Part shown: positions 14,533-26,494 of the stretch, piece by piece
Layout: every line of letters starts with the position of its first letter
How positions within the stretch are numbered: position 1 is the first letter of the stretch
Assembly: GCA_964540835.1 (NCBI GenBank)
Contig: CAZIOA010000001.1
Span: 1 to 42,951, forward strand
DNA length: 42,951 bases
From: an uncultured Candidatus Saccharibacteria bacterium
GTDB lineage: Bacteria; Patescibacteriota; Saccharimonadia; Saccharimonadales; Saccharimonadaceae
Reading direction: 5' to 3'
The notes under the pieces: generated by a model
What the model saw: the letters and a program-made list of their open reading frames with translations, nothing else
Told to the model about the DNA's origin: nothing
The model's database searches: none
Made by a program: the position numbers and the translations under genes

Positions 14533-15492
14533 TTAGATAGGTAGGTTGATAAAGCTAGTCAGGCTACCCAGCAGACCCGACGCATTGCCAGCCATACCGT
14601 TTGCTATGCCGATCTGCGACGTGATTGCGGAGAATGAACCCATCAACCCACTCAAGCCCCCCAGACCGCCGAGCATACCGCTCAGATCGCTGATATTTCC
14701 AAGGTTGCCCAGATTGCCCAAGCTACCAAGACCGCCCAGACCGCCCATCATGCCGCTAAATGTCGCGACGAGCGCCATGACCAGCGTGATCGATGAAGCA
14801 AGTATAGACCCGATGGTAGTCATCATGGTAGAGATATTGTCAAGCTGAGACTGTGCGGAGGTGACGACTCCTTCGCCGTTAAGATTCAAGTCCACGCAAG
14901 TGCTTTTGTCCGTGTTGCCAGACAAGCACTTCCTGATTTTTGCTATTTGGCTCTGTAGCCCTCCGGCAGTTTTCTTGAGCTTGTCAAATACGCCAGACAA
15001 GCTCTCTATCGCTTTGGTTACGGCCGCTTGTACGTCCGTCAGTTGCGTGATCTGGAACTGCGCGTCGATATTCTTGGCAAGCGACTTCAAGTCACCCAGT
15101 GACATGGTGTTCGTGACTTTTTCCTGCATGGCTTTGAGCTGCTCAATGACTTTTTCGATGAACTTTTTGACTTTGTCTTTGAACTCGCTCGGCAATGTGT
15201 CTTTGTTTTTTGTGGTGTCTTTGTCGTTCAGGCCCTTTACCTGAAACGTTGTGCCGTTGCTGCTGATATGGATGTCTATGCTCAGGCTTTTTCTTGTTTT
15301 TTCGAAGTTTTCCAGACGGCGATCAATTTCTTTGAGCACCTTCTGCTTGAGCTCTTTGACTGCCTGCGTTTCGGCAGCGGCTTGTGCGTTTACCGTGGCT
15401 ACTGGCACCGATACAGCCAACAACATACTCATAAATAGCAGTGCGCATGCAGATACGGCCCTTGATGTGAAACGGGGGAGAGTGATATTCAT
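14533..15492 (-). CDS. Secreted coiled-coil protein with Gly/Leu-repeat hydrophobic C-terminus (hypothetical)
   Basis: Signal peptide MNITLPRFTSRAVSACALLFMSMLLAVSVPVATVNAQA, long K/E-rich helical region, and a C-terminal GGLGGLGSLGNLGNLGN...GGLGGLSGLMG tract. Confidence 0.65.
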   Translation of the reverse strand: MNITLPRFTSRAVSACALLFMSMLLAVSVPVATVNAQAAAETQAVKELKQKVLKEIDRRLENFEKTRKSLSIDIHISSNGTTFQVKGLNDKDTTKNKDTLPSEFKDKVKKFIEKVIEQLKAMQEKVTNTMSLGDLKSLAKNIDAQFQITQLTDVQAAVTKAIESLSGVFDKLKKTAGGLQSQIAKIRKCLSGNTDKSTCVDLNLNGEGVVTSAQSQLDNISTMMTTIGSILASSITLVMALVATFSGMMGGLGGLGSLGNLGNLGNISDLSGMLGGLGGLSGLMGSFSAITSQIGIANGMAGNASGLLGSLTSFINLPI

Positions 15493-17065: not shown

Positions 17066-17490
17066 CTACAGTCGACGACGACGACGCTGCAAATCAGCGA
17101 CCTTCAAGCGTACCGCATGACGATCAACGAGCTGGCTGGCTTTTTCGAGCTCTACCTGATCCTTGGCGCTTTCGCGCATTTTCATGGCGCGGTCGAGCGC
17201 AGCTTTGGTTTCTGCCTCTATGATATCCTCGCCGCTGTCAGCCTCGTCGACAAGTACCTTCAGGCTGTCCTGAGATACTTCGATCACGCCGCCGGTAATG
17301 GCGTAGTAGTGCAGGTGCTCATTGCTGTCGATCTTGTTTCTGCGCACAGCAATCGCGCCCGGCACGGCGATGCTGATCAGCGGTTCGTGACCGGGAAACA
17401 CCGCAATTTCACCATCTGCCGTCGGCAAAATTACTTCATAGACATCTTCGTCTACTTTAGTCCCGAGCAATGTGACTAACTGAAACTTCA

Positions 17491-17491
<1 letters not shown>
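17066..17491 (-). CDS. atpC: F1 ATP synthase epsilon subunit
   Basis: MKFQLVTLLG...GEIAVFPGHEPLIS is typical of epsilon. The GTG start overlaps the atpD stop by 1 nt. Confidence 0.9.
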
Positions 17492-18972
<1,481 letters not shown>

Positions 18973-19022
18973 TTATGTGCTCTAGTCCTTCTTGCTCAGC
19001 GTTTCGGTCGCTAAAGTCTCGC

Positions 19023-19409
19023 TCATGTCGTCGCCTCCTCGCCGCCGCTGATTTGAAAGTTGCCAGCCAGTACATCCGATAGTTTCCGCCGTGGCTTGAT
19101 TTTGGGCTTGATACCACGCTTGCGGTTATAGTCCTCCTTCGCCCAGCCATAGAGGTTACGGACATCTTCACCATTCAGTCCGGTCTCGTATTCAACCTGT
19201 AGGATTTTAAGTATCCTTGCCGGACTATAATCCTGGTCGATAAACTCCTGACGACGTTGCTCGTATATAGCAAAGAGGTTCACGTCGTCCCTCTGCTCAA
19301 AGTCTGCCTGAAGCTCCCTGAGGTACTTAGGTAGCTTCTTGATATAACCAAAGTCCTGCTCCTTTTTGACGGGAAAACGAGTTAACTCCGGTTGCTTCTC
19401 GGTCATCAT
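19023..19409 (-). CDS. Unknown 128-aa hydrophilic protein embedded between atpG and atpD
   Basis: The start ATG overlaps the atpG stop (ATGA). Highly charged, no TM. The last 10 codons copy the atpG 3' end (ISGGEEATT vs ISGGVEAMK). Confidence 0.6.
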   Translation of the reverse strand: MMTEKQPELTRFPVKKEQDFGYIKKLPKYLRELQADFEQRDDVNLFAIYEQRRQEFIDQDYSPARILKILQVEYETGLNGEDVRNLYGWAKEDYNRKRGIKPKIKPRRKLSDVLAGNFQISGGEEATT

Positions 19410-20275
19410 TTCATCGCCTCCACGCCGCCGCTGATTTCGGCGAGTTCCTGTGTGATCGCGCTCTGGCGGGCTTTGTTCATGGCGAGCGTCAGGTCATCGA
19501 TCAGGTCGCTGGCGTTGTCGGTCGCGTTTTTCATGGCGAGCATACGCATGATGTACTCGCTGGCACGGGCTGTAAGCAACGCGTGGTACACTTGCGCCTC
19601 GACGAGACGATACGTCACAGCAGCCAGCACTTCCTCGGCACTTGGCTCAAATGTCGCTTGGCGGACAGCTTCGCTCACCTCGGTTTTTTCAAACCCGGCT
19701 GGCAATATACGCTGCACCGTCGCCTCTTGCTTGACGGTCGAAACAAATTCGGTAAACACGATATCGACAGCATCGACGTCGCCGTTCTCAAACGACTCTA
19801 CCGCAGCGTCGACAATCGCGCGCAGCTGGTTACCGGCTGGATCGTCGGGCAGATCCTGGTATGCGGCAGTAACCTGTGTGTCTTTGAGCCTTGAAACGAA
19901 ACGGTTAGCACGACGACCGACGGCTATGGTTTGGTTTTTTATGCCAGCCGCATCGTCGTCGAGCAACTGTCGGGCGTAGAGTTTGAGTACGTTGGCATCG
20001 TATGCACCAGCAAGACCTTTGTCAGTCGCAATGACGATGAGCATGCGGCTTTTGATCTTGTCGCGCCTTTGAAACAGCGGATGTCGATCAGTTTCGCCCT
20101 GCGCAGCAAGGTGGGTCAGGATCTCACGTGCAGCGGTCGTGTATGGACCTGATGCTTTTTCGGCTTCCTGAGCCTTGCGCATCTTGCTAGCTGCCACAAG
20201 TTGCATGGCCTTGGTAATCTGCTTGGTCGATTTGACCGAGCGGATACGGGTTTTGAGCGCGCGGGTACTAGGCAT
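19406..20275 (-). CDS. atpG: F1 ATP synthase gamma subunit
   Basis: MPSTRALKTRIRSVKSTKQITKAMQLVAASKMRKAQ N-terminus and ITQELAEISGG C-terminus are typical of gamma. Confidence 0.95.
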   Translation of the reverse strand: MPSTRALKTRIRSVKSTKQITKAMQLVAASKMRKAQEAEKASGPYTTAAREILTHLAAQGETDRHPLFQRRDKIKSRMLIVIATDKGLAGAYDANVLKLYARQLLDDDAAGIKNQTIAVGRRANRFVSRLKDTQVTAAYQDLPDDPAGNQLRAIVDAAVESFENGDVDAVDIVFTEFVSTVKQEATVQRILPAGFEKTEVSEAVRQATFEPSAEEVLAAVTYRLVEAQVYHALLTARASEYIMRMLAMKNATDNASDLIDDLTLAMNKARQSAITQELAEISGGVEAMK

Positions 20276-20615
20276 CCTTAACCTCCCGAGCTACTTTACC
20301 AAGTGCTTCCTGTTTTGCGCGTCTTTGATTCTTTAGAAATTTATGAGATGGAACCGGAGTGTACTTTGAGTAAACGCCACTCCGACGCATAAGCCGCTCC
20401 GTAGCTGTCACTCGTTTTACCTCATCAGCTGTGTCTGTGTTATCTATCGCGCTAAACACCGCGCGTGCAGCTTGTCGATCAGCCAGTGTTTCATCGATAT
20501 CATCATTGGCCGCAGGCGCCTCGCGGTTCACGCGTCCACGTGCAAGCAGATCGGCATCAGCGCGGGCCCATCCGTCCAGCATTTCCATACTTTCGTCCGA
20601 CAAGTGTTCGGTCAT
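20268..20615 (-). CDS. Unknown 115-aa acidic/basic protein embedded between atpA and atpG
   Basis: Starts 3 nt after the atpA stop and overlaps the atpG start by 8 nt. No TM and no recognisable motif. Confidence 0.55.
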   Translation of the reverse strand: MTEHLSDESMEMLDGWARADADLLARGRVNREAPAANDDIDETLADRQAARAVFSAIDNTDTADEVKRVTATERLMRRSGVYSKYTPVPSHKFLKNQRRAKQEALGKVAREVKDA

Positions 20616-20618
20616 TGT

Positions 20619-22154
20619 CTACCCTTCGAATCCTTTCGCTACAGCTACGGCGACTTTCTCGAGCAATTTGGCTGTTTTGGAATCGTCAGTTATCTTTTCG
20701 TCGCCCTTGTTGAGTTCCTGCATGTCCTTTTTGTGGTCGGTCCATAGGCGAGTGAGTAGGGCAGTCTGCGCGTCCTTGATCTTGCTGACGGCAACTTTGT
20801 CGAACGCACCGCTGTTGACCGCGTAGATAGAAGCGACTTGCTCCCAAACGCCAAGAGGACTGTACTGAGGCTGCTTGAGCAGCTCTGTCAGGCGCTGACC
20901 GCGCTCGATCTGGCTCTTGGTCGCTTCGTCCAGGTCGCTACCGAACTGCGCAAATGACGCAAGTTCGCGGAACTGTGACAGGCCAAGTTTCAGGTGAGAG
21001 CCAACGGATTTGACAGACTTCGTCTGCGCGTCACCACCGACACGGCTCACAGAAAGACCTGCCGAGATAGCTGGGCGGATACCCTGGTTGAAGAGGTCTG
21101 TCTCCATGAAGATCTGACCGTCGGTAATAGAGATAACGTTGGTCGGAATGTATGCAGAAATGTCACCAGCCTGCGTCTCGATGATAGGCAGTGCAGTGAG
21201 TGAACCTGCGCCCAGGTCGTCAGACAATTTCGCAGATCGCTCCAGAAGGCGAGAGTGTAGATAGAAGACGTCGCCAGGGAAGGCTTCGCGTCCCGGTGGG
21301 CGGCGGAGCAGCAGTGACATCTGGCGGTAGGCGACAGCGTGCTTGGTTAGATCGTCGTAGATGATGAGCGCGTGTTTTTTGTTGTCGCGGAAGTACTCGC
21401 CCATGGCAGTACCAGCGTATGGCGCCAGGTAGAGTAGGGAGGCGGGGTCAGACGGACCAGTCGCGACGATGATGGTTTGATCCATCACGCCTTCTTCTTT
21501 CAATCGTTCGACGAGGCGGGCGATTTTCGACAGTTTCTGGCCGACAGCGACGTAAATGTTGACGACGCCGGTCTTTTGGCGGCCTTGGTTGATCATGGTA
21601 TCGATCGCGATAGCCGTCTTGCCAGTCTGGCGATCGCCGATAATAAGCTCACGCTGGCCACGACCGATAGGGAACATCGCGTCGATCGCCATGACACCGG
21701 TCATCATAGGCTCGTGGACGTGCTTACGACCGAGGACGCCGATCGCTTCACGTTCAACCAAGCCTCGGTGTTTGGTCTTGATAGCAGGACCGCCATCGAG
21801 CGGACGACCAAGCGGATCAACCACGCGGCCGAGGAGCTCTTCGCCCACGGGAACGTCCAGAATCGTGCCCTTGAGCGTCACTTTCGCGCCAGCTGCAACC
21901 TCTTCATCGCTGCCCAACAGCACGGCACCGATTTCGTCTTCGTTCAGGTTCAAGGCAAATGCTTCGACCGTACCGCTCTTCGTTTCGATAAGCAACACTT
22001 CGCTCGCACCGGCACTGCGAAGGCCGTACACCCAAGCCACGCCGTCACCGACGCGGGTGACGATACCGACGCTTTCCAAATCGCCAGATACTTCGAGTGC
22101 GGCAATCGCATCGCGGAGATCCTTGCTGAGTTCTGTAACTGTTAATTCTGCCAT
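20619..22154 (-). CDS. atpA: F1 ATP synthase alpha subunit
   Basis: Walker A GDRQTGKT; 511 aa; typical alpha sequence throughout. Confidence 0.95.
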
Positions 22155-22163
22155 TTTTGCTCC

Positions 22164-22553
22164 TTATATCTTGCTTGCTTTCAATTGATTCAGTCGACGC
22201 CTCAGTGTCGTATCCAGCTCGCGGCCAGCCGCGCTCACGCGCACGCCTCCCAGTAAGCTATCATCGACGGACTCTCGCATCACCACACGCTCGGCGTTCA
22301 TGGTTTGCGCCAAAAATGAAGCAATCGCGTTCTTCGTATCATCACCAAGCTTCCGACTGCTGTGTAAATCAGCCACGACGAGACCTCGTTCAGCAAGCGC
22401 AGCCTCTATGTCGCGAACAATCAAATCCATTTCGTTCTCGCGGTGCGTCTCAGTCAAGTATGCCGCCAGTTGTTTGATGACATTACGGCCAGCCAATAAC
22501 TCGTCAGCACAATACGCCGCGATTTTGCGTCGGGACAACTTGGCTCCAGCCAC
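22164..22553 (-). CDS. atpH: F1 ATP synthase delta (OSCP) subunit, short form (129 aa)
   Basis: Position between atpF and atpA. C-terminal DDSLLGGVRVSAAGRELDTTLRRRLNQLK matches the delta C-terminal pattern. About 50 aa shorter than usual. Confidence 0.75.
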   Translation of the reverse strand: MAGAKLSRRKIAAYCADELLAGRNVIKQLAAYLTETHRENEMDLIVRDIEAALAERGLVVADLHSSRKLGDDTKNAIASFLAQTMNAERVVMRESVDDSLLGGVRVSAAGRELDTTLRRRLNQLKASKI

Positions 22554-23095
22554 TACGCTTGCTCCTTGATTGCCGCGGCAATGATTTTTTTGTCGACGCT
22601 CTCGCTTACTGTTTTGCCGACGACCTTTTCGGTTGCAAGAGCAACTAGTTCAATCGTGTCGTTGTGTAGCGTCTTGCGAGCAGCGATAACGTCTTTTTCA
22701 AGCTGCTCATGTGCGTCCTTGACGATCTTGTCCGCGCGAGCCTTGGCTTTTTCTTCGCTTGCCGCGATCATGGCATTTGCCTCGTCTTTGGCCGTCGCGA
22801 CGATATCCTTTGCTTCGGCGCGCGCTTCTTTGAGCAGCTTGGCTATATCGTCTTGAGCGGACTCTGCTTTGGCTTCAGCTTCCTGAGCAGCTTTGACGCT
22901 TTCCTCGATTTTTGCCTGTCGGTCGTCAACTGCCTTGATTAGTATCGGAAAAACCCATTTACCCAGGACAAACACGAGGATCAGAAACGCGATGGCTTGA
23001 AATAGCAGCATCTGACCATTGATGCCCAATGAGCTAAGGATGTCGCCTGAAGCGCCCTGTTCCGCAGCTGCAAAATTATATAGAAGATTCGTCAT
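22553..23095 (-). CDS. atpF: Fo ATP synthase b subunit
   Basis: Single N-terminal TM (LLFQAIAFLILVFVLGKWVF) plus a long A/E/K-rich helix. Operon position. Confidence 0.9.
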   Translation of the reverse strand: MTNLLYNFAAAEQGASGDILSSLGINGQMLLFQAIAFLILVFVLGKWVFPILIKAVDDRQAKIEESVKAAQEAEAKAESAQDDIAKLLKEARAEAKDIVATAKDEANAMIAASEEKAKARADKIVKDAHEQLEKDVIAARKTLHNDTIELVALATEKVVGKTVSESVDKKIIAAAIKEQA

Positions 23096-23115
23096 GCAAC
23101 TCCTTTTATATCTAT

Positions 23116-23334
23116 TTAGCCTGCGACCGCGCGCGCGATAAACGCGACGACGATACCGATGATAGCCAGTGAGTCAGCAAAGACGATGGCGGTGATCATC
23201 AGCGTGCGGATTTCACCAAGTTTTTCTGGGTTTCGACCAAAAGCACCAAGCGCTCCGCCACCGATAACACCGATACCTACTGCCGCGCCTAGTGCTGGAA
23301 GGGCATAAGCTAAGACAAATGCTAACTGCTCCAC
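23116..23334 (-). CDS. atpE: Fo ATP synthase c subunit
   Basis: 72-aa two-helix hairpin with GxGxGxG-like packing motif (VGIGVIGGGALG), a polar loop (RNPEK) and a carboxylate in helix 2 (FADSLAI). GTG start 8 nt after AGGAG. Confidence 0.9.
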   Translation of the reverse strand: MEQLAFVLAYALPALGAAVGIGVIGGGALGAFGRNPEKLGEIRTLMITAIVFADSLAIIGIVVAFIARAVAG

Positions 23335-23383
23335 AATATTTTCTCCTTTAGTTTATTACTTTAAATTATATATTATATCGTTA

Positions 23384-23507
23384 CAACCTGCACATTTGAG
23401 TGCAGTTCGGGATGAAAAGCGAGCACCGCAGCGAAGACGTACACAAAACGTACGGCGAAGCGAGGAGACGGAGCTTTACATCCGAAATGCGCCAAATGTG
23501 AAGGTTG
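23384..23507 (+). repeat. Palindromic repeat element, divergent short copy D (atpB-atpE spacer)
   Basis: Closing stem CAACCTGCACATTTG/CAAATGTGAAGGTTG (14 of 15 paired) and GGATGAAAAGC/GCTTTACATCC. The central GCACCGCAGCGAAGACGTAC-acaaaac-GTACGGCGAAGCGAGGAGACGGAG aligns with the left half of copies A-C. Confidence 0.6.
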
Positions 23508-23511
23508 AACA

Positions 23512-24366
23512 TCATTCTGTCTGGACAGCCGCTTTGTTACGGATATCAGCAGATGAATGATCGTCAGAAGTGATGTCGTGCGCATCCTCAAGCACCGTGT
23601 GGCTCTCTACTGCCAGTGCCGTGAAGATAACGGTCAGGATAAAGAACACGTACGCCTGGACAAAGCCGATAAACAGCTCAAATAGCAGGAATGGCGGCAA
23701 CGCGACGACAGCGACGTAACTCGTCAAGACTCCAATGATGACGAGGAGGATCTCACCAGCGAAACAGTTGCCAAACATTCGGACGCTCAGCGCCGCGTAT
23801 CGTGAGAATTCTCCGATAAACTCAAGGACACCTTCGAAAGATCCGATCGGATCCTTGATCGGATTGCGGAAGTATCGTTTCAGGCTGCCAATGGGACCAT
23901 GCACGCGCAACGCGTAGTATTGCACCATGATCAGCACGATGATCGCGACCGCAAACGTGAAGTTCAGATCAGCCGTGATCGCGCGAAGTACTGGCGCATC
24001 GTTCCAAAAGATCGAGTCGAGTCCCGGCAACACGCTCATCCAGTAACCAGCCAGCATGAAGAAGAAGATCGTCAATGCAAGCGGTGCGACCTGGCGAGCG
24101 ATCTTTTGGTCTGGGATGACGCTATACACCTGACCGAGCATGCCTTCAAACGCCCACTGCACGAGTCCGACGAAACGATTATAGCGACCGTTTTTGACCA
24201 TGTAGGCGACGTAGCCTAGCACGCCAAAAAGCACGATGAGACTCAGTCCGCCAGTCAACAATGAGTTCGTGATCGGAAACCCGCCGATACTAAACAACTC
24301 TTGTGAAGCGACGTGGATCTCGATCCCGCCTGACGTAGACGCAAAATTACTCAACATACTCATCAT
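23512..24366 (-). CDS. atpB: Fo ATP synthase a subunit
   Basis: Multi-pass membrane protein with a conserved-Arg region (YAALSVRMFGNCFAGE) and an acidic C-terminal extension of about 35 aa. Confidence 0.9.
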   Translation of the reverse strand: MMSMLSNFASTSGGIEIHVASQELFSIGGFPITNSLLTGGLSLIVLFGVLGYVAYMVKNGRYNRFVGLVQWAFEGMLGQVYSVIPDQKIARQVAPLALTIFFFMLAGYWMSVLPGLDSIFWNDAPVLRAITADLNFTFAVAIIVLIMVQYYALRVHGPIGSLKRYFRNPIKDPIGSFEGVLEFIGEFSRYAALSVRMFGNCFAGEILLVIIGVLTSYVAVVALPPFLLFELFIGFVQAYVFFILTVIFTALAVESHTVLEDAHDITSDDHSSADIRNKAAVQTE

Positions 24367-24644
24367 TAATTACCGCTACTTTGCTCGTTTGCTTTCTTAT
24401 ATTGCTGCCTGACTAGCAGTGTCGTCACGACGATACCCACCGCCAGGCCGCCGACCGCGTACCATGGCTCAGTATCTGCCATGCTATCGATCCAGAGACC
24501 CAGGAGCGCCCCTCCGAGCGTAGGGACAAACATCCGCCACGTCGTATCCGCCGCTATCATGAACAATAAAACAACCGCTGATTTTTGTGGCGGTGTCTCC
24601 TTGTCGTCGCTTTTTTTCGCAGCGGCAGCGCTCATTACTAACAT
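24366..24644 (-). CDS. AtpZ/AtpI-like small membrane protein at the head of the atp operon
   Basis: 92 aa with two predicted TMs; overlaps the atpB start by 1 nt. TTGTCA-17-TACAGT promoter directly upstream on the minus strand. Confidence 0.6.
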   Translation of the reverse strand: MLVMSAAAAKKSDDKETPPQKSAVVLLFMIAADTTWRMFVPTLGGALLGLWIDSMADTEPWYAVGGLAVGIVVTTLLVRQQYKKANEQSSGN

Positions 24645-24917: not shown

Positions 24918-25004
24918 CTTTTTTGCCACTAGATACTATGATTTAGGCACTTCATGGCGGTGGGGCAGAAGTACATTGACAAGCAGACAGACACAAGGTG
25001 AGTT

Positions 25005-25198
25005 ATCGCTGCGCCACTTCGCGCGCACCGGTATCTCATCTTGTGTTGGTAAGAATACACAAGCGGGGGAGACCCCGAGGACAATCGCCTGTGAGAACCG
25101 GAAGGAAGCGCGATGCGAATCGCAATCCCAAAGGGCCGGGCGATAGTCTCGGTCAAAACACGCCAATTCGATACCGAAAGGAATGGGGTCTGACAATC
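25005..25198 (+). promoter_or_regulatory. Structured GC-rich 5' leader of the acyl-CoA dehydrogenase gene (candidate cis-regulatory RNA, unclassified)
   Basis: Hairpins CTTGTGT/ACACAAG (25040/25057), CGGGG-GAGA-CCCCG (25064-25077) and GCGAT-GCGA-ATCGC (25110-25123). Long-range helix CCGAGGACAATCGCC (25075-89) with GGCGATAGTCTCGG (25139-52). No SD in front of the ATG at 25199. Confidence 0.35.
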
Positions 25199-26494
25199 AT
25201 GGCCGACAACATTTTTACCCTGTTAAGTCCAGATCAGTTGGAACTGCTGGAAGATGCAGGCAAGGAAACGGCAACATTCTCCATGGAACCTCCGGAGTTC
25301 GCGTCCACTTGGGCCCAATTTGTCGGCGATTTCGCCGACAGGGTGATTGTTCCCGTTGCCCGTGACTACGACGAGCGGGAGGCGTTCCCGATCGAGGTTG
25401 TGCAGGAGGCAGCGAAGGAGGACATTTACGGCATCCTGCCGCTGCTACTCGCCCAGGCTGAAAAGTCCGGTCTCTTCTTGCCGGAGATGGTGAGGGCGCT
25501 GTTCAAACGCGATCCGGGGTGCGGCATGGCGATCATGGGCTCGGCACTCCCTGCCGCTGCAGTCCAAGCCAACGGCACTCCCGAGCAAATTCTGGAGTGG
25601 GTGCCGCAGCTGTATGGCACCAAAGAGGACATCAAGATCGGAGCGCTCTGTGTGACCGAAGAGGGTGCTGGCTCGGATGTGTCGAAGCTGCGAACTCGAG
25701 CAGTACGCGACGGCGACGATTGGGTCATCACCGGCAACAAGATGTTCATCACCAACGGCTCGGTGGCCGACATGTATGTCGTCGTGGCAACTGTCGATCC
25801 CGAACTAGGGGCTCGCGGTCACGCCAGCTTCATGGTGCCGCGAGACACCAAGGGTGTGGAGCCGGGCAAGAAATCCGACAAATGTGGGATCAAGGGCAGT
25901 GACACGTCACCGGTGTACTTCGATAACGTGCGCATCCCTCGTGAAAACCTGTTGGGTGGAGAGGGTGCGCTCGAGGATAGGCTCGCCAAGGCTCACGAAG
26001 TACAGAAAAACCCGAACGCCCACAGTGGTGGCAAAAATCCCGCCATGGCGACCTTCGAGGCAACTCGCCCTCTAGTGGGGGCGATGGCAGTCGGTGTCGC
26101 CGAAGCTGCGCTGGAGTATGTGATAAACTACGCCAAGACACGCGAAGTTTTCGGCTCAACACTCGACGCCAAGGAGATCACCGCGGTGAAGTTTGCCAAT
26201 ATGGCCACGGAGATCGAATGCTCCCGGCTGTTGGTCTGGCAAGCTGCCTGGATGGCGAAAAACGGCAAGAAGTTCACGCGAGCCCAAGGCTCGATGAGCA
26301 AGCTGAAGGCAAGCGAGACTGCCGTGAACGTGACTCTGGAAGCCATCCAGATCATGGGCGGTTACGGCTTCATGCGTGAGCATCCCGTCGAGCGGTGGCA
26401 CCGCGATTCGATCATCATGAGGATTTTCGAGGGCACCAGCGAGATCCAGCAGCTGGACATCGCCGGAAAGCTCACGGGTCAACGTGTCCGCTAG
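25199..26494 (+). CDS. Acyl-CoA dehydrogenase family protein
   Basis: EEGAGSDVSKLRTRAVRDGDDWVITGNKMFITNG and RIFEGTSEIQ are typical ACAD blocks. The ORF track starts at 24998, but the first 67 codons are low-complexity leader; MADNIF at 25199 is the likely start. Clearly higher GC than neighbours (55-68% in 60-nt samples I counted). Confidence 0.85.
   Translation: MADNIFTLLSPDQLELLEDAGKETATFSMEPPEFASTWAQFVGDFADRVIVPVARDYDEREAFPIEVVQEAAKEDIYGILPLLLAQAEKSGLFLPEMVRALFKRDPGCGMAIMGSALPAAAVQANGTPEQILEWVPQLYGTKEDIKIGALCVTEEGAGSDVSKLRTRAVRDGDDWVITGNKMFITNGSVADMYVVVATVDPELGARGHASFMVPRDTKGVEPGKKSDKCGIKGSDTSPVYFDNVRIPRENLLGGEGALEDRLAKAHEVQKNPNAHSGGKNPAMATFEATRPLVGAMAVGVAEAALEYVINYAKTREVFGSTLDAKEITAVKFANMATEIECSRLLVWQAAWMAKNGKKFTRAQGSMSKLKASETAVNVTLEAIQIMGGYGFMREHPVERWHRDSIIMRIFEGTSEIQQLDIAGKLTGQRVR

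Follow-up and report, generated by a model that had tools for sequence, protein, structure and literature searches.

The window analyzed here is a stretch of 42,951 nucleotides (contig CAZIOA010000001.1, positions 1 to 42,951) from an uncultured member of the Saccharibacteria (TM7). Comparison of its ATP synthase gamma subunit with the gammas of Saccharibacteria metagenome-assembled genomes (MAGs) gives 62-88% identity. The atp operon lies on the minus strand in the order AtpI-like gene, atpB, atpE, atpF, a short atpH, atpA, ORF115, atpG, ORF128, atpD and atpC. Few gene orders in bacteria are as conserved as alpha-gamma-beta. In the window, two small open reading frames (ORFs), ORF115 and ORF128, interrupt it on either side of the gamma gene. 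A first, sequence-only reading of this DNA had reported both ORFs, and their coordinates and junctions (3 nt, an 8-nt overlap and an ATGA) are confirmed from the sequence.

ORF115 and ORF128 in the atp operon

ORF115 starts 3 nt (ACA) past the TAG stop of atpA, and the Shine-Dalgarno (SD)-like sequence GAAGGG that serves it is within the 3' end of atpA. The TAG stop of ORF115 falls inside codons 2-3 of atpG, giving the 8-nt overlap (ATGCCTAG), and ORF115 carries the SD of atpG (GGAGG, 20286-20282). ORF128 starts on an ATGA overlap with the atpG stop, with the SD GGAGG 7 nt upstream. For all three starts, ORF115, atpG and ORF128, the SD lies inside the 3' end of the gene before. Promoter-like sites are found only upstream of the AtpI-like gene. 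Inside the operon there are no coding-strand terminator-like sites and no internal promoters beyond chance, and the spacers have no Rfam match to an RNA element. To judge from this layout, both ORFs are translationally coupled, and the atp mRNA is their only route to expression. A programmed read-through from atpA into ORF115 was considered and rejected; the two are in frame here, but the corresponding gaps of relatives are 0, 2, 3, 4 or 5 nt, with no frame kept throughout. Independent assemblies of different runs gave 9 contigs with the ORF115 sequence, which are at least 99.8% identical and so uninformative on selection.

The last 32 nt of ORF128 are a copy of the last 32 nt of atpG, identical at 29 positions. 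The local alignment score of this repeat is 49, a value reached by 0 of 2000 shuffles. The copied tail contains the GGAGG SD and the ATGA stop/start and regenerates both for the cistron that follows. Relatives are homologous to ORF128 exactly up to the start of the tail copy, and they have a degenerate version of the tail (AGC GAG GAG GCT ATC GAT). The 32-nt tail is the only part of ORF128 that derives from atpG. A partial gamma duplication was considered because of weak hidden Markov model (HMM) matches to atpG, but was rejected at an hhalign probability of 0.7%. Similar copies are found at two of the other atp loci surveyed below (L numbers). The first post-atpA insert of L003 ends in a 23/30 copy of the atpA tail (…VVKGFEE), and that of L015 in a 19/30 copy, so at least three inserts duplicate a tail. 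Tail or head repeats beside the downstream gene were absent across 112 expansions. At least some cassettes therefore consist of a body, which takes the original start site, plus a copy of the upstream gene's coupling tail, which restores such a site for the gene behind it.

A 95-nt spacer separates ORF128 from atpD. It holds a 14-codon mini-ORF (19026-18982, MSETLATETLSKKD) that starts on the second ATGA, as well as the atpD SD AGGAGAA. Another frame of the spacer resembles the C-terminus (RIEAH..SDE.HAEGEQ-stop) of a family of small ORFs that precede atpD (L082, L084, L086, L003 and L007). The spacer looks like the decayed remnant of a further small ORF of this family. The atpD start had been placed at 18942, and by far the likeliest position is 18927. 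From there the protein begins MVKTVEK, with AGGAGAA 6 nt upstream; an M[AV]KT[AV]E start with its SD is conserved in 15 relatives, and the gene caller agrees in L165 and L166.

Both proteins are hydrophilic and highly charged, as first described, with grand average of hydropathy (GRAVY) values of -0.79 and -0.97 for the pair and 36% charged residues. The isoelectric point is 6.1 for ORF115 and 8.7 for ORF128. They are unrelated to one another (BLASTP E = 0.15; nothing by hhalign), and a 'GWA(R/K).D' motif common to both was dismissed as not significant. The early impression that they resemble nothing known was borne out: Pfam, PHROG, NCBIfam and PADLOC gave no meaningful match for ORF115, with only a sub-threshold Bbp19 hit in the Pfam-A scan at E <= 1, and nothing for ORF128 (Pfam at E <= 1); scans of several relatives were equally empty of meaningful matches. 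The original view of translationally coupled, lineage-restricted genes holds as well.

ORF128 has 7 homologues, at 57-99% identity, among 5.8 billion proteins, and their alignment has 56 invariant columns. None was found in GTDB species representatives or IMG/VR. In all five readable contexts (L001, L162-L164 and a JGI contig), the family is downstream of atpG. The start is on the atpG stop in four of them, and in the JGI contig a 198-aa ORF intervenes. We define the post-atpG family by a position directly downstream of atpG, an overlapping stop/start and the core NLFAIYE..RRQEF…Q.EYET.L…D(V/I)RNLYGWAKEDY, and ORF128 has all three. Six-frame translation of 162 atp loci gave 12,816 ORFs, among which the best three non-self matches to a profile of the ORF128 family were first post-atpG ORFs, those of L091, L005 and L015. 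This remote homology is confirmed by hhalign (probability 93.7%, E = 1.9e-7, 77 columns). Where synonymous divergence is unsaturated, the ratio of non-synonymous to synonymous change (dN/dS) of ORF128 is 0.05-0.09, and that of the adjacent atpG segment is 0.005-0.011; ORF128 evolves non-synonymously 3-15 times faster than gamma. The AlphaFold2 model of ORF128 has an overall confidence (pLDDT) of 70, with a helical core at residues 30-100 that reaches 83-92. The model suggests a small basic helical domain. Foldseek found no match to it below E = 0.7 in PDB and BFVD, and a PDB profile search returned nothing at E <= 10.

ORF115 is more elusive. Its G+C content at third codon positions (GC3), 0.45, is the lowest of the operon; atpE has 0.49 and the other atp genes 0.55-0.65. 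A word-indexed database search returned only ORF115 itself. L084 has a 153-aa homologue in the same position (tblastn E = 1.5e-7; jackhmmer 4e-18). The two have in common a C-terminal module, GVYS.Y.P…H.FL.NQ…EA.G, and the N-terminal two thirds of ORF115 are not conserved. Within the module, 10 of 19 identical residues use different synonymous codons, which places the constraint on the protein and not on the RNA. An exhaustive profile search of 1.8e9 representative proteins brought the family to 6 proteins only. The four new members (P0010-P0013) match N-terminal modules of the L084 protein (P0009) at E = 1e-13 to 4e-5, and their C-termini match the post-atpA ORFs of L002, L015 and L085. The post-atpA ORF of L007 is also linked to this network. 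P0010-P0013 are linked by protein sequence, and the position between atpA and atpG is read in loci such as L084.

Membership of the post-atpA family is defined as a position between atpA and atpG with at least one shared module from the following set: FGERSFVEDLARGE; (V)ERE.TR.AL..AS.ELVD; PWERQR; GVYS.Y.P...H.FL.NQ; SLYEGLGLID.ARTRR; and a basic SRSRR tail. ORF115 belongs to this mosaic family through the C-terminal module of L084/P0009. On these sequence comparisons, the ORF115 family can be described as a fast-evolving network of short modules that occur in varying combinations after atpA. A link from ORF115 to L003 and L012 through 'DETL..RQA.R' is no more than suggestive, at phmmer E = 0.005 among 26 sequences and hhalign E = 0.098. 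A jackhmmer search from L085 drifted into low-complexity antisense ORFs and was discarded. The AlphaFold2 model of ORF115 (pLDDT 58) consists of three long helices without a fold and is too poor for a structure search. Much of the protein is probably disordered or forms long helices, and its C-terminal module is conserved.

The delta subunit of the window is short, as the sequence-only reading had remarked. The shortness is general in Saccharibacteria and unrelated to the inserts. Of 113 loci compared, about 100 encode a delta of 127-133 aa, and the median is 129 aa in loci with inserts versus 129.5 aa in those without. The extent of the OSCP match suggests that the canonical N-terminal part of delta is missing phylum-wide, irrespective of inserts. 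A split delta was rejected as an explanation of the ORFs, since neither has an OSCP match and the short delta is not tied to extra ORFs.

Table 1. Features of the atp operon in the window.
Feature	Position	Strand	Basis
AtpI-like gene, atpB, atpE, atpF, atpH (upstream part of the operon)	22164..24644	-	ORF list, Pfam; junctions all tight
AtpI-like gene	24644-24366	-	Pfam ATPase_gene1 match
atpH (short delta, 129 aa)	22164-22553	-	Pfam OSCP match, profile positions 66-170 only
atpA (F1 alpha, 511 aa)	22154..20619	-	ORF list, Pfam; stop TAG; 88-94% identical to Saccharibacteria MAG alphas
ORF115 (115 aa), post-atpA small protein	20615..20268	-	ORF list and sequence
atpG (F1 gamma, 289 aa)	20275..19406	-	Pfam ATP-synt E = 1e-85; 76-88% identical within the close clade
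ORF128 (128 aa), post-atpG small protein	19409..19023	-	ORF list and sequence
Direct repeat copy 1, atpG 3' end (…EISGGVEAMK-stop)	19406..19437	-	includes SD GGAGG and ATGA stop/start
Direct repeat copy 2, ORF128 3' end (…QISGGEEATT-stop)	19023..19054	-	29/32 identical to copy 1
Spacer, 95 nt, ORF128 to atpD	18928..19022	-	sequence; comparison with relatives
atpD (F1 beta)	17491..18927	-	start re-assigned to 18927; mechanical ORF begins 18942
atpC (epsilon, 141 aa)	17066..17491	-	ORF list, Pfam; overlaps atpD stop

Variable slots beside the gamma gene

A survey of 161 Saccharibacteria atp loci places the two ORFs in a wider pattern. With an expansion defined as at least 90 nt, and with denominators that vary by junction, the atpA-atpG junction is expanded in 46 of 159 loci and the atpG-atpD junction in 46 of 88. 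The atpD-atpC junction is expanded in 20 of 125 loci and atpB-atpE in 8 of 111, and atpE-atpF, atpF-atpH and atpH-atpA are expanded in 0-3 loci each. In the close clade, where gamma is at least 75% identical to that of the window, the counts are 20/27 for atpA-atpG and 19/23 for atpG-atpD. The gamma-flanking junctions are bimodal, being either tight (2-12 nt) or 100-1,260 nt longer. ORF115 and ORF128 are thus no isolated insertions. They sit in two variable slots filled by dozens of unrelated ORFs, and each belongs to a position-bound family.

Nearly all the expansions are filled on the coding strand. In 32/33 distinct atpA-atpG expansions and 56/60 distinct atpG-atpD expansions, one ORF on the same strand as the atp genes takes up 90% or more of the gap, compared with 1/33 and 8/60 for ORFs on the opposite strand. 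Coverage is that of the longest single ORF, a measure that replaced a union-of-frames metric that failed to separate the strands. The chance of a gap-filling open frame of 115 or 128 codons, estimated from base composition, is about 0.3-0.6% per frame. BLASTP groups the 121 gap ORFs into 64 clusters. No cluster is found at both sites, and 31 of the 38 post-atpA clusters are singletons. Most gap ORFs have no Pfam match. The occupants that Pfam identifies include a NUDIX protein, a nucleoside 2-deoxyribosyltransferase-like protein (Nuc_deoxyrib_tr) and a four-helix bundle of the 23S rRNA-IVP type.

Slot content varies among genomes whose beta subunits are 93-96% identical, from empty to one ORF to arrays of 2-4. 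L004 (beta 96% identical to the window) has no ORF before atpD, and L082 (gamma 88% identical) has only a 57-aa ORF of another family; these are the nearest relatives, and neither has an ORF128-type gene. L082, L084 and L086 have an 'MS(E/N)…' ORF directly after atpG. L001 has a clean atpA-atpG junction (3 nt) together with an ORF128 homologue and two further small ORFs. In L010 and L011, both slots are empty.

Several slots hold contents of separate interest. The atpA-atpG array of L003 (3744-5001) is 1,256 nt long and has four coupled ORFs of 90, 137, 133 and 53 aa; the first is the one with the atpA-tail copy, and the third has an 'ETLQERE.ARRALGK' module. A larger acidic protein occupies the post-atpA slot of L015 (3814-4407, 197 aa) and L083 (2750-3508, 252 aa). 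The two match each other at phmmer E = 3e-62 and have no Pfam or NCBIfam match. Nanosynbacter-type loci, oral and other (for example L050, L045 and L068), have one of at least four alternative atpG-atpD genes, which encode a deoxyribosyltransferase-like protein of 126 aa, a NUDIX protein of 149 aa and unknown proteins of 169 and 131 aa; others of this type are tight. Genes for 23S rRNA intervening-sequence proteins (PF05635) are in the atpG-atpD slot of L033 (5896-6282) and L077 (5966-6283).

The atpD-atpC expansions differ from the gamma-flanking ones in holding independent genes, such as MFS-type transporters, without translational coupling. In L023, L025, L032, L038, L060, L016 and L039, these gaps contain MFS-like transporters of about 450 aa, 23S_rRNA_IVP-like genes and small membrane proteins. 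The 23S_rRNA_IVP-like genes of L038 and L060 were judged by eye against the Pfam-confirmed L033 protein. PF05635 genes seem to have a tendency to land in junctions of conserved operons.

Two genes outside the operon complete the picture of the window. The minus-strand gene at 14533-15492 encodes a 319-aa protein whose N-terminus is hydrophobic and whose C-terminus is repetitive and rich in G, L and S; the protein also contains a coiled-coil region. A homologue lies inside the atpD-atpC gap of L083 (6191-7585; BLASTP 1e-38), so this gene also travels with the atp neighborhood. Divergently upstream of the atp operon, at 24998-26494 on the plus strand, is an acyl-CoA dehydrogenase gene with all four Pfam domains. 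Its ORF has a long N-terminal overhang, and the true start is probably later. To our knowledge, such an enzyme is unexpected in a Saccharibacteria genome of minimal metabolism.

Passenger genes or partners of F1

ORF115 and ORF128 are, on the evidence of their sequences, genuine, position-bound genes. Both are evidently under protein-level selection, because ORF128 has a dN/dS of 0.05-0.09 and the conserved residues of ORF115 have accumulated synonymous changes. Close relatives have clean atpA-atpG or atpG-atpD junctions, and the ORFs are therefore dispensable; the decayed remnant of a third ORF in the window is in line with this. We read them as dispensable, translationally coupled passenger genes in site-specific variable slots, and give this reading a probability of roughly 0.45. 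The choice between accessory subunits and tolerated insertions, posed in the sequence-only reading, still frames the question, with obligatory subunits made less likely by the close relatives that lack the ORFs. Synteny and dN/dS, the checks proposed at that stage, came out divided: position is kept and ORF128 is constrained, but presence is patchy, with one or both ORFs missing in close relatives. As to the insertion alternative, nothing points to a selfish element of the classical kind, as neither a transposase, endonuclease or phage relative nor a family at both sites was found. The 'essential' operon is doubtful as well, as a Tn-seq study of the saccharibacterium Southlakia epibionticum found every F-type ATP synthase gene to be dispensable (PMC10633639).

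Each ORF takes over the start position and the SD that in relatives without inserts serve the following atp gene. The insert starts either 3 nt past the atpA stop or on the ATGA of the atpG stop, and supplies a fresh SD and stop/start overlap to the next gene, so that ribosomes would terminate and re-initiate with no polar effect on the atp genes. ORF128 re-creates the coupling through its 32-nt copy of the atpG tail. In the passenger reading, gain, loss and reshuffling may proceed by recombination, for which the highly conserved neighboring genes and the short tail duplications could serve. If the two 32-nt repeats recombined, ORF128 would be cut out exactly, leaving an arrangement of the L082/L084/L086 type. 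The slots by gamma would then be permissive, site-specific landing places in which small genes are captured, diversify and are lost. The F1 junctions could be hotspots since they are flanked by the most conserved genes (alpha and beta, 88-96% identity), which would make the best homology arms. This picture of recombination fits because Saccharibacteria are naturally transformable, with homologous recombination demonstrated, and their ATP synthase is non-essential (PMC10633639).

Several observations pull the other way. The ORF128-type and ORF115-type families are seen only beside atpG, and ordinary passenger genes usually have homologues elsewhere; a gene trapped in the operon, though, would also be seen only there. 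The inserts cluster around the F1 genes and both ORFs flank gamma, which also fits a functional link to F1. Distances within the ORF128 subclade look vertical, and recombination and horizontal exchange are postulates of the passenger reading. Within the window only ORF128 has a significant tail copy, that of ORF115 being indistinguishable from chance (p = 0.57).

These points lend weight to a functional alternative, in which the proteins would be lineage-specific F1-associated factors that either regulate rotation or hydrolysis or act as chaperones in the assembly of gamma, and are made in gamma-like stoichiometry through translational coupling. They would be functional analogues, not homologues, of IF1, zeta, AtpTheta, the epsilon C-terminal domain (CTD) and the mycobacterial alpha C-terminal extension. 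Position-bound families directly after atpA and atpG across a clade, tight start/stop overlaps, strong purifying selection on ORF128 and the concentration of inserts at F1 rather than Fo junctions are all as such factors would predict. Small, charged, helical or disordered proteins are also what the known classes of F1 inhibitor look like (PMC9317440; bioRxiv 10.1101/2021.07.30.454416). The patchy distribution speaks against this idea, as the nearest relatives lack the genes, L010 and L011 have none, and the same slots hold many unrelated families including plain enzymes. Non-synonymous change at 3-15 times that of gamma, next to highly conserved alpha and beta (90-96%), is also unexpected of a partner, and neither protein resembles the IF1, zeta, epsilon-CTD or OSCP models. 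In the cultured saccharibacterium, the enzyme is dispensable and probably an ATP-driven pump, so that an inhibitor of hydrolysis is not obviously needed (PMC10633639). An F1-associated role is the main rival, and on balance we consider it somewhat unlikely. A broader version, in which ORF115- and ORF128-type proteins would form a new class of gamma-flanking F1 partners encoded in the operon, regulating or assembling the ATP synthase of epibiotic Saccharibacteria that lack respiration, with the duplicated tail as a mechanism for scarless swapping, is unlikely.

The inserts could also matter as translated spacers, with the act of translation setting re-initiation on atpG and atpD, tuning the 3:1:3 ratio of alpha, gamma and beta or preventing Rho-type polarity, and the peptides largely irrelevant. 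A sense frame that is kept open in nearly every expansion whatever its sequence, extreme sequence turnover with many singletons (31/38 post-atpA clusters), the poor codon usage of ORF115 and the dissimilarity of its N-terminal two thirds to L084 would all follow. Such a role is improbable in view of the amino-acid constraint on ORF128 (dN/dS 0.05-0.09), the ORF115 C-terminal module kept through synonymous changes and the bona fide enzymes among the occupants; relatives with tight junctions also manage their stoichiometry without spacers. Chance open frames in non-coding expansions, or artefacts of assembly or annotation, would explain the few database relatives and atypical GC3 of ORF115, and are very hard to credit given the same sequence in 9 independently assembled contigs, sense-strand filling of 32/33 and 56/60 gaps, protein-level conservation among homologues, well-formed SDs and overlaps, and the lack of an Rfam match.

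The passenger reading remains favored for the unrelated families and enzymes in the slots, the patchy presence across near-identical F1 cores and the fast turnover. ORF115 and ORF128 are most likely passengers on the operon's expression rather than components of ATP synthase.

Orphan small ORFs are common in genomes of the candidate phyla radiation (CPR). The literature searched contains no description of ORFs between atpA, atpG and atpD in Saccharibacteria, and the two protein families, ORF115-type and ORF128-type, are new. What stands out is a lineage of phylum rank that repeatedly inserts, swaps and loses small coupled genes at exactly the gamma-flanking junctions. The slots show how very small genomes that are apparently poor in promoters may acquire and express genes without disturbing an operon. 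They also call for caution in annotation and in ATP synthase research, where an additional ORF in a CPR atp operon should not be taken for a new subunit by default. Both position-bound families, one of them under strong purifying selection, are directly testable, since natural transformation permits genetics in Saccharibacteria. Binding to F1, if it occurs, would make the proteins regulators of a new class, in organisms whose use of ATP synthase is itself unsettled.

Comparison with known systems

The two ORFs share general features with small regulators of F1. IF1, zeta, AtpTheta, the epsilon CTD and the mycobacterial alpha extension are also small, hydrophilic, charged, helical or disordered and lineage-restricted, and the epsilon CTD and the alpha extension are likewise encoded within the atp operon. 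Unlike these, ORF115 and ORF128 show no sequence similarity to such regulators in Pfam-A (E <= 1) or the PDB profile search (E <= 10), so that neither can be assigned to IF1, the zeta subunit (DUF1476) or the epsilon CTD, and Foldseek found no structural similarity for the ORF128 model. Zeta and AtpTheta are encoded outside the operon and conserved across their lineage, whereas the ORF115 and ORF128 genes are patchy and are replaced by unrelated families. As with atpI and atpZ, transcription together with the ATP synthase genes and the lack of a catalytic role mark them as accessory ORFs of the operon. The AtpI and AtpZ proteins lie in the membrane and are encoded at the 5' end of the operon; ORF115 and ORF128, with their negative GRAVY values, high charge and lack of a Pfam match, are not members of these families but soluble proteins encoded inside the F1 core, in hypervariable slots. 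An unidentified 'gene X' between the gamma and beta genes of Rhodopseudomonas blastica was reportedly described by Tybulewicz, Falk and Walker in 1984. As a lead only, gene X would be a precedent for an ORF between atpG and atpD.

Neither ORF belongs to a mobile element of the insertion sequence/transposon, homing endonuclease or prophage type. No domain of a transposase, endonuclease or integrase was found in them, they are not flanked by terminal inverted repeats, and tblastn against 50,697 phage records gave no relatives. ORF115, ORF128 and three relatives had no PADLOC match to anti-phage defense at E <= 0.1.

Integron cassettes are another parallel, as each slot too has a fixed position and holds 1-4 small co-directional ORFs, without promoters and for the most part of diverse and unknown function, and a short direct repeat bounds one of the cassettes. 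Unlike integrons, the stretches examined have no integrase, no attC-like palindromes at cassette ends and no cassette common to both sites, and the repeat is the 3' end of the upstream atp gene. The slots also resemble conserved operons with passengers, such as secY-adk-map in the spc operon, in which unrelated co-directional genes use the operon promoter and lineage-variable content lies between fixed flanks. They differ from passengers of the spc type in that the inserts are tiny orphans that re-use existing start sites for translational coupling, change from one close relative to the next and carry, in at least three cases, a copy of the upstream tail. The slots and their duplicated tails are thus a variation on passenger genes in conserved operons and on variable regions between core genes.

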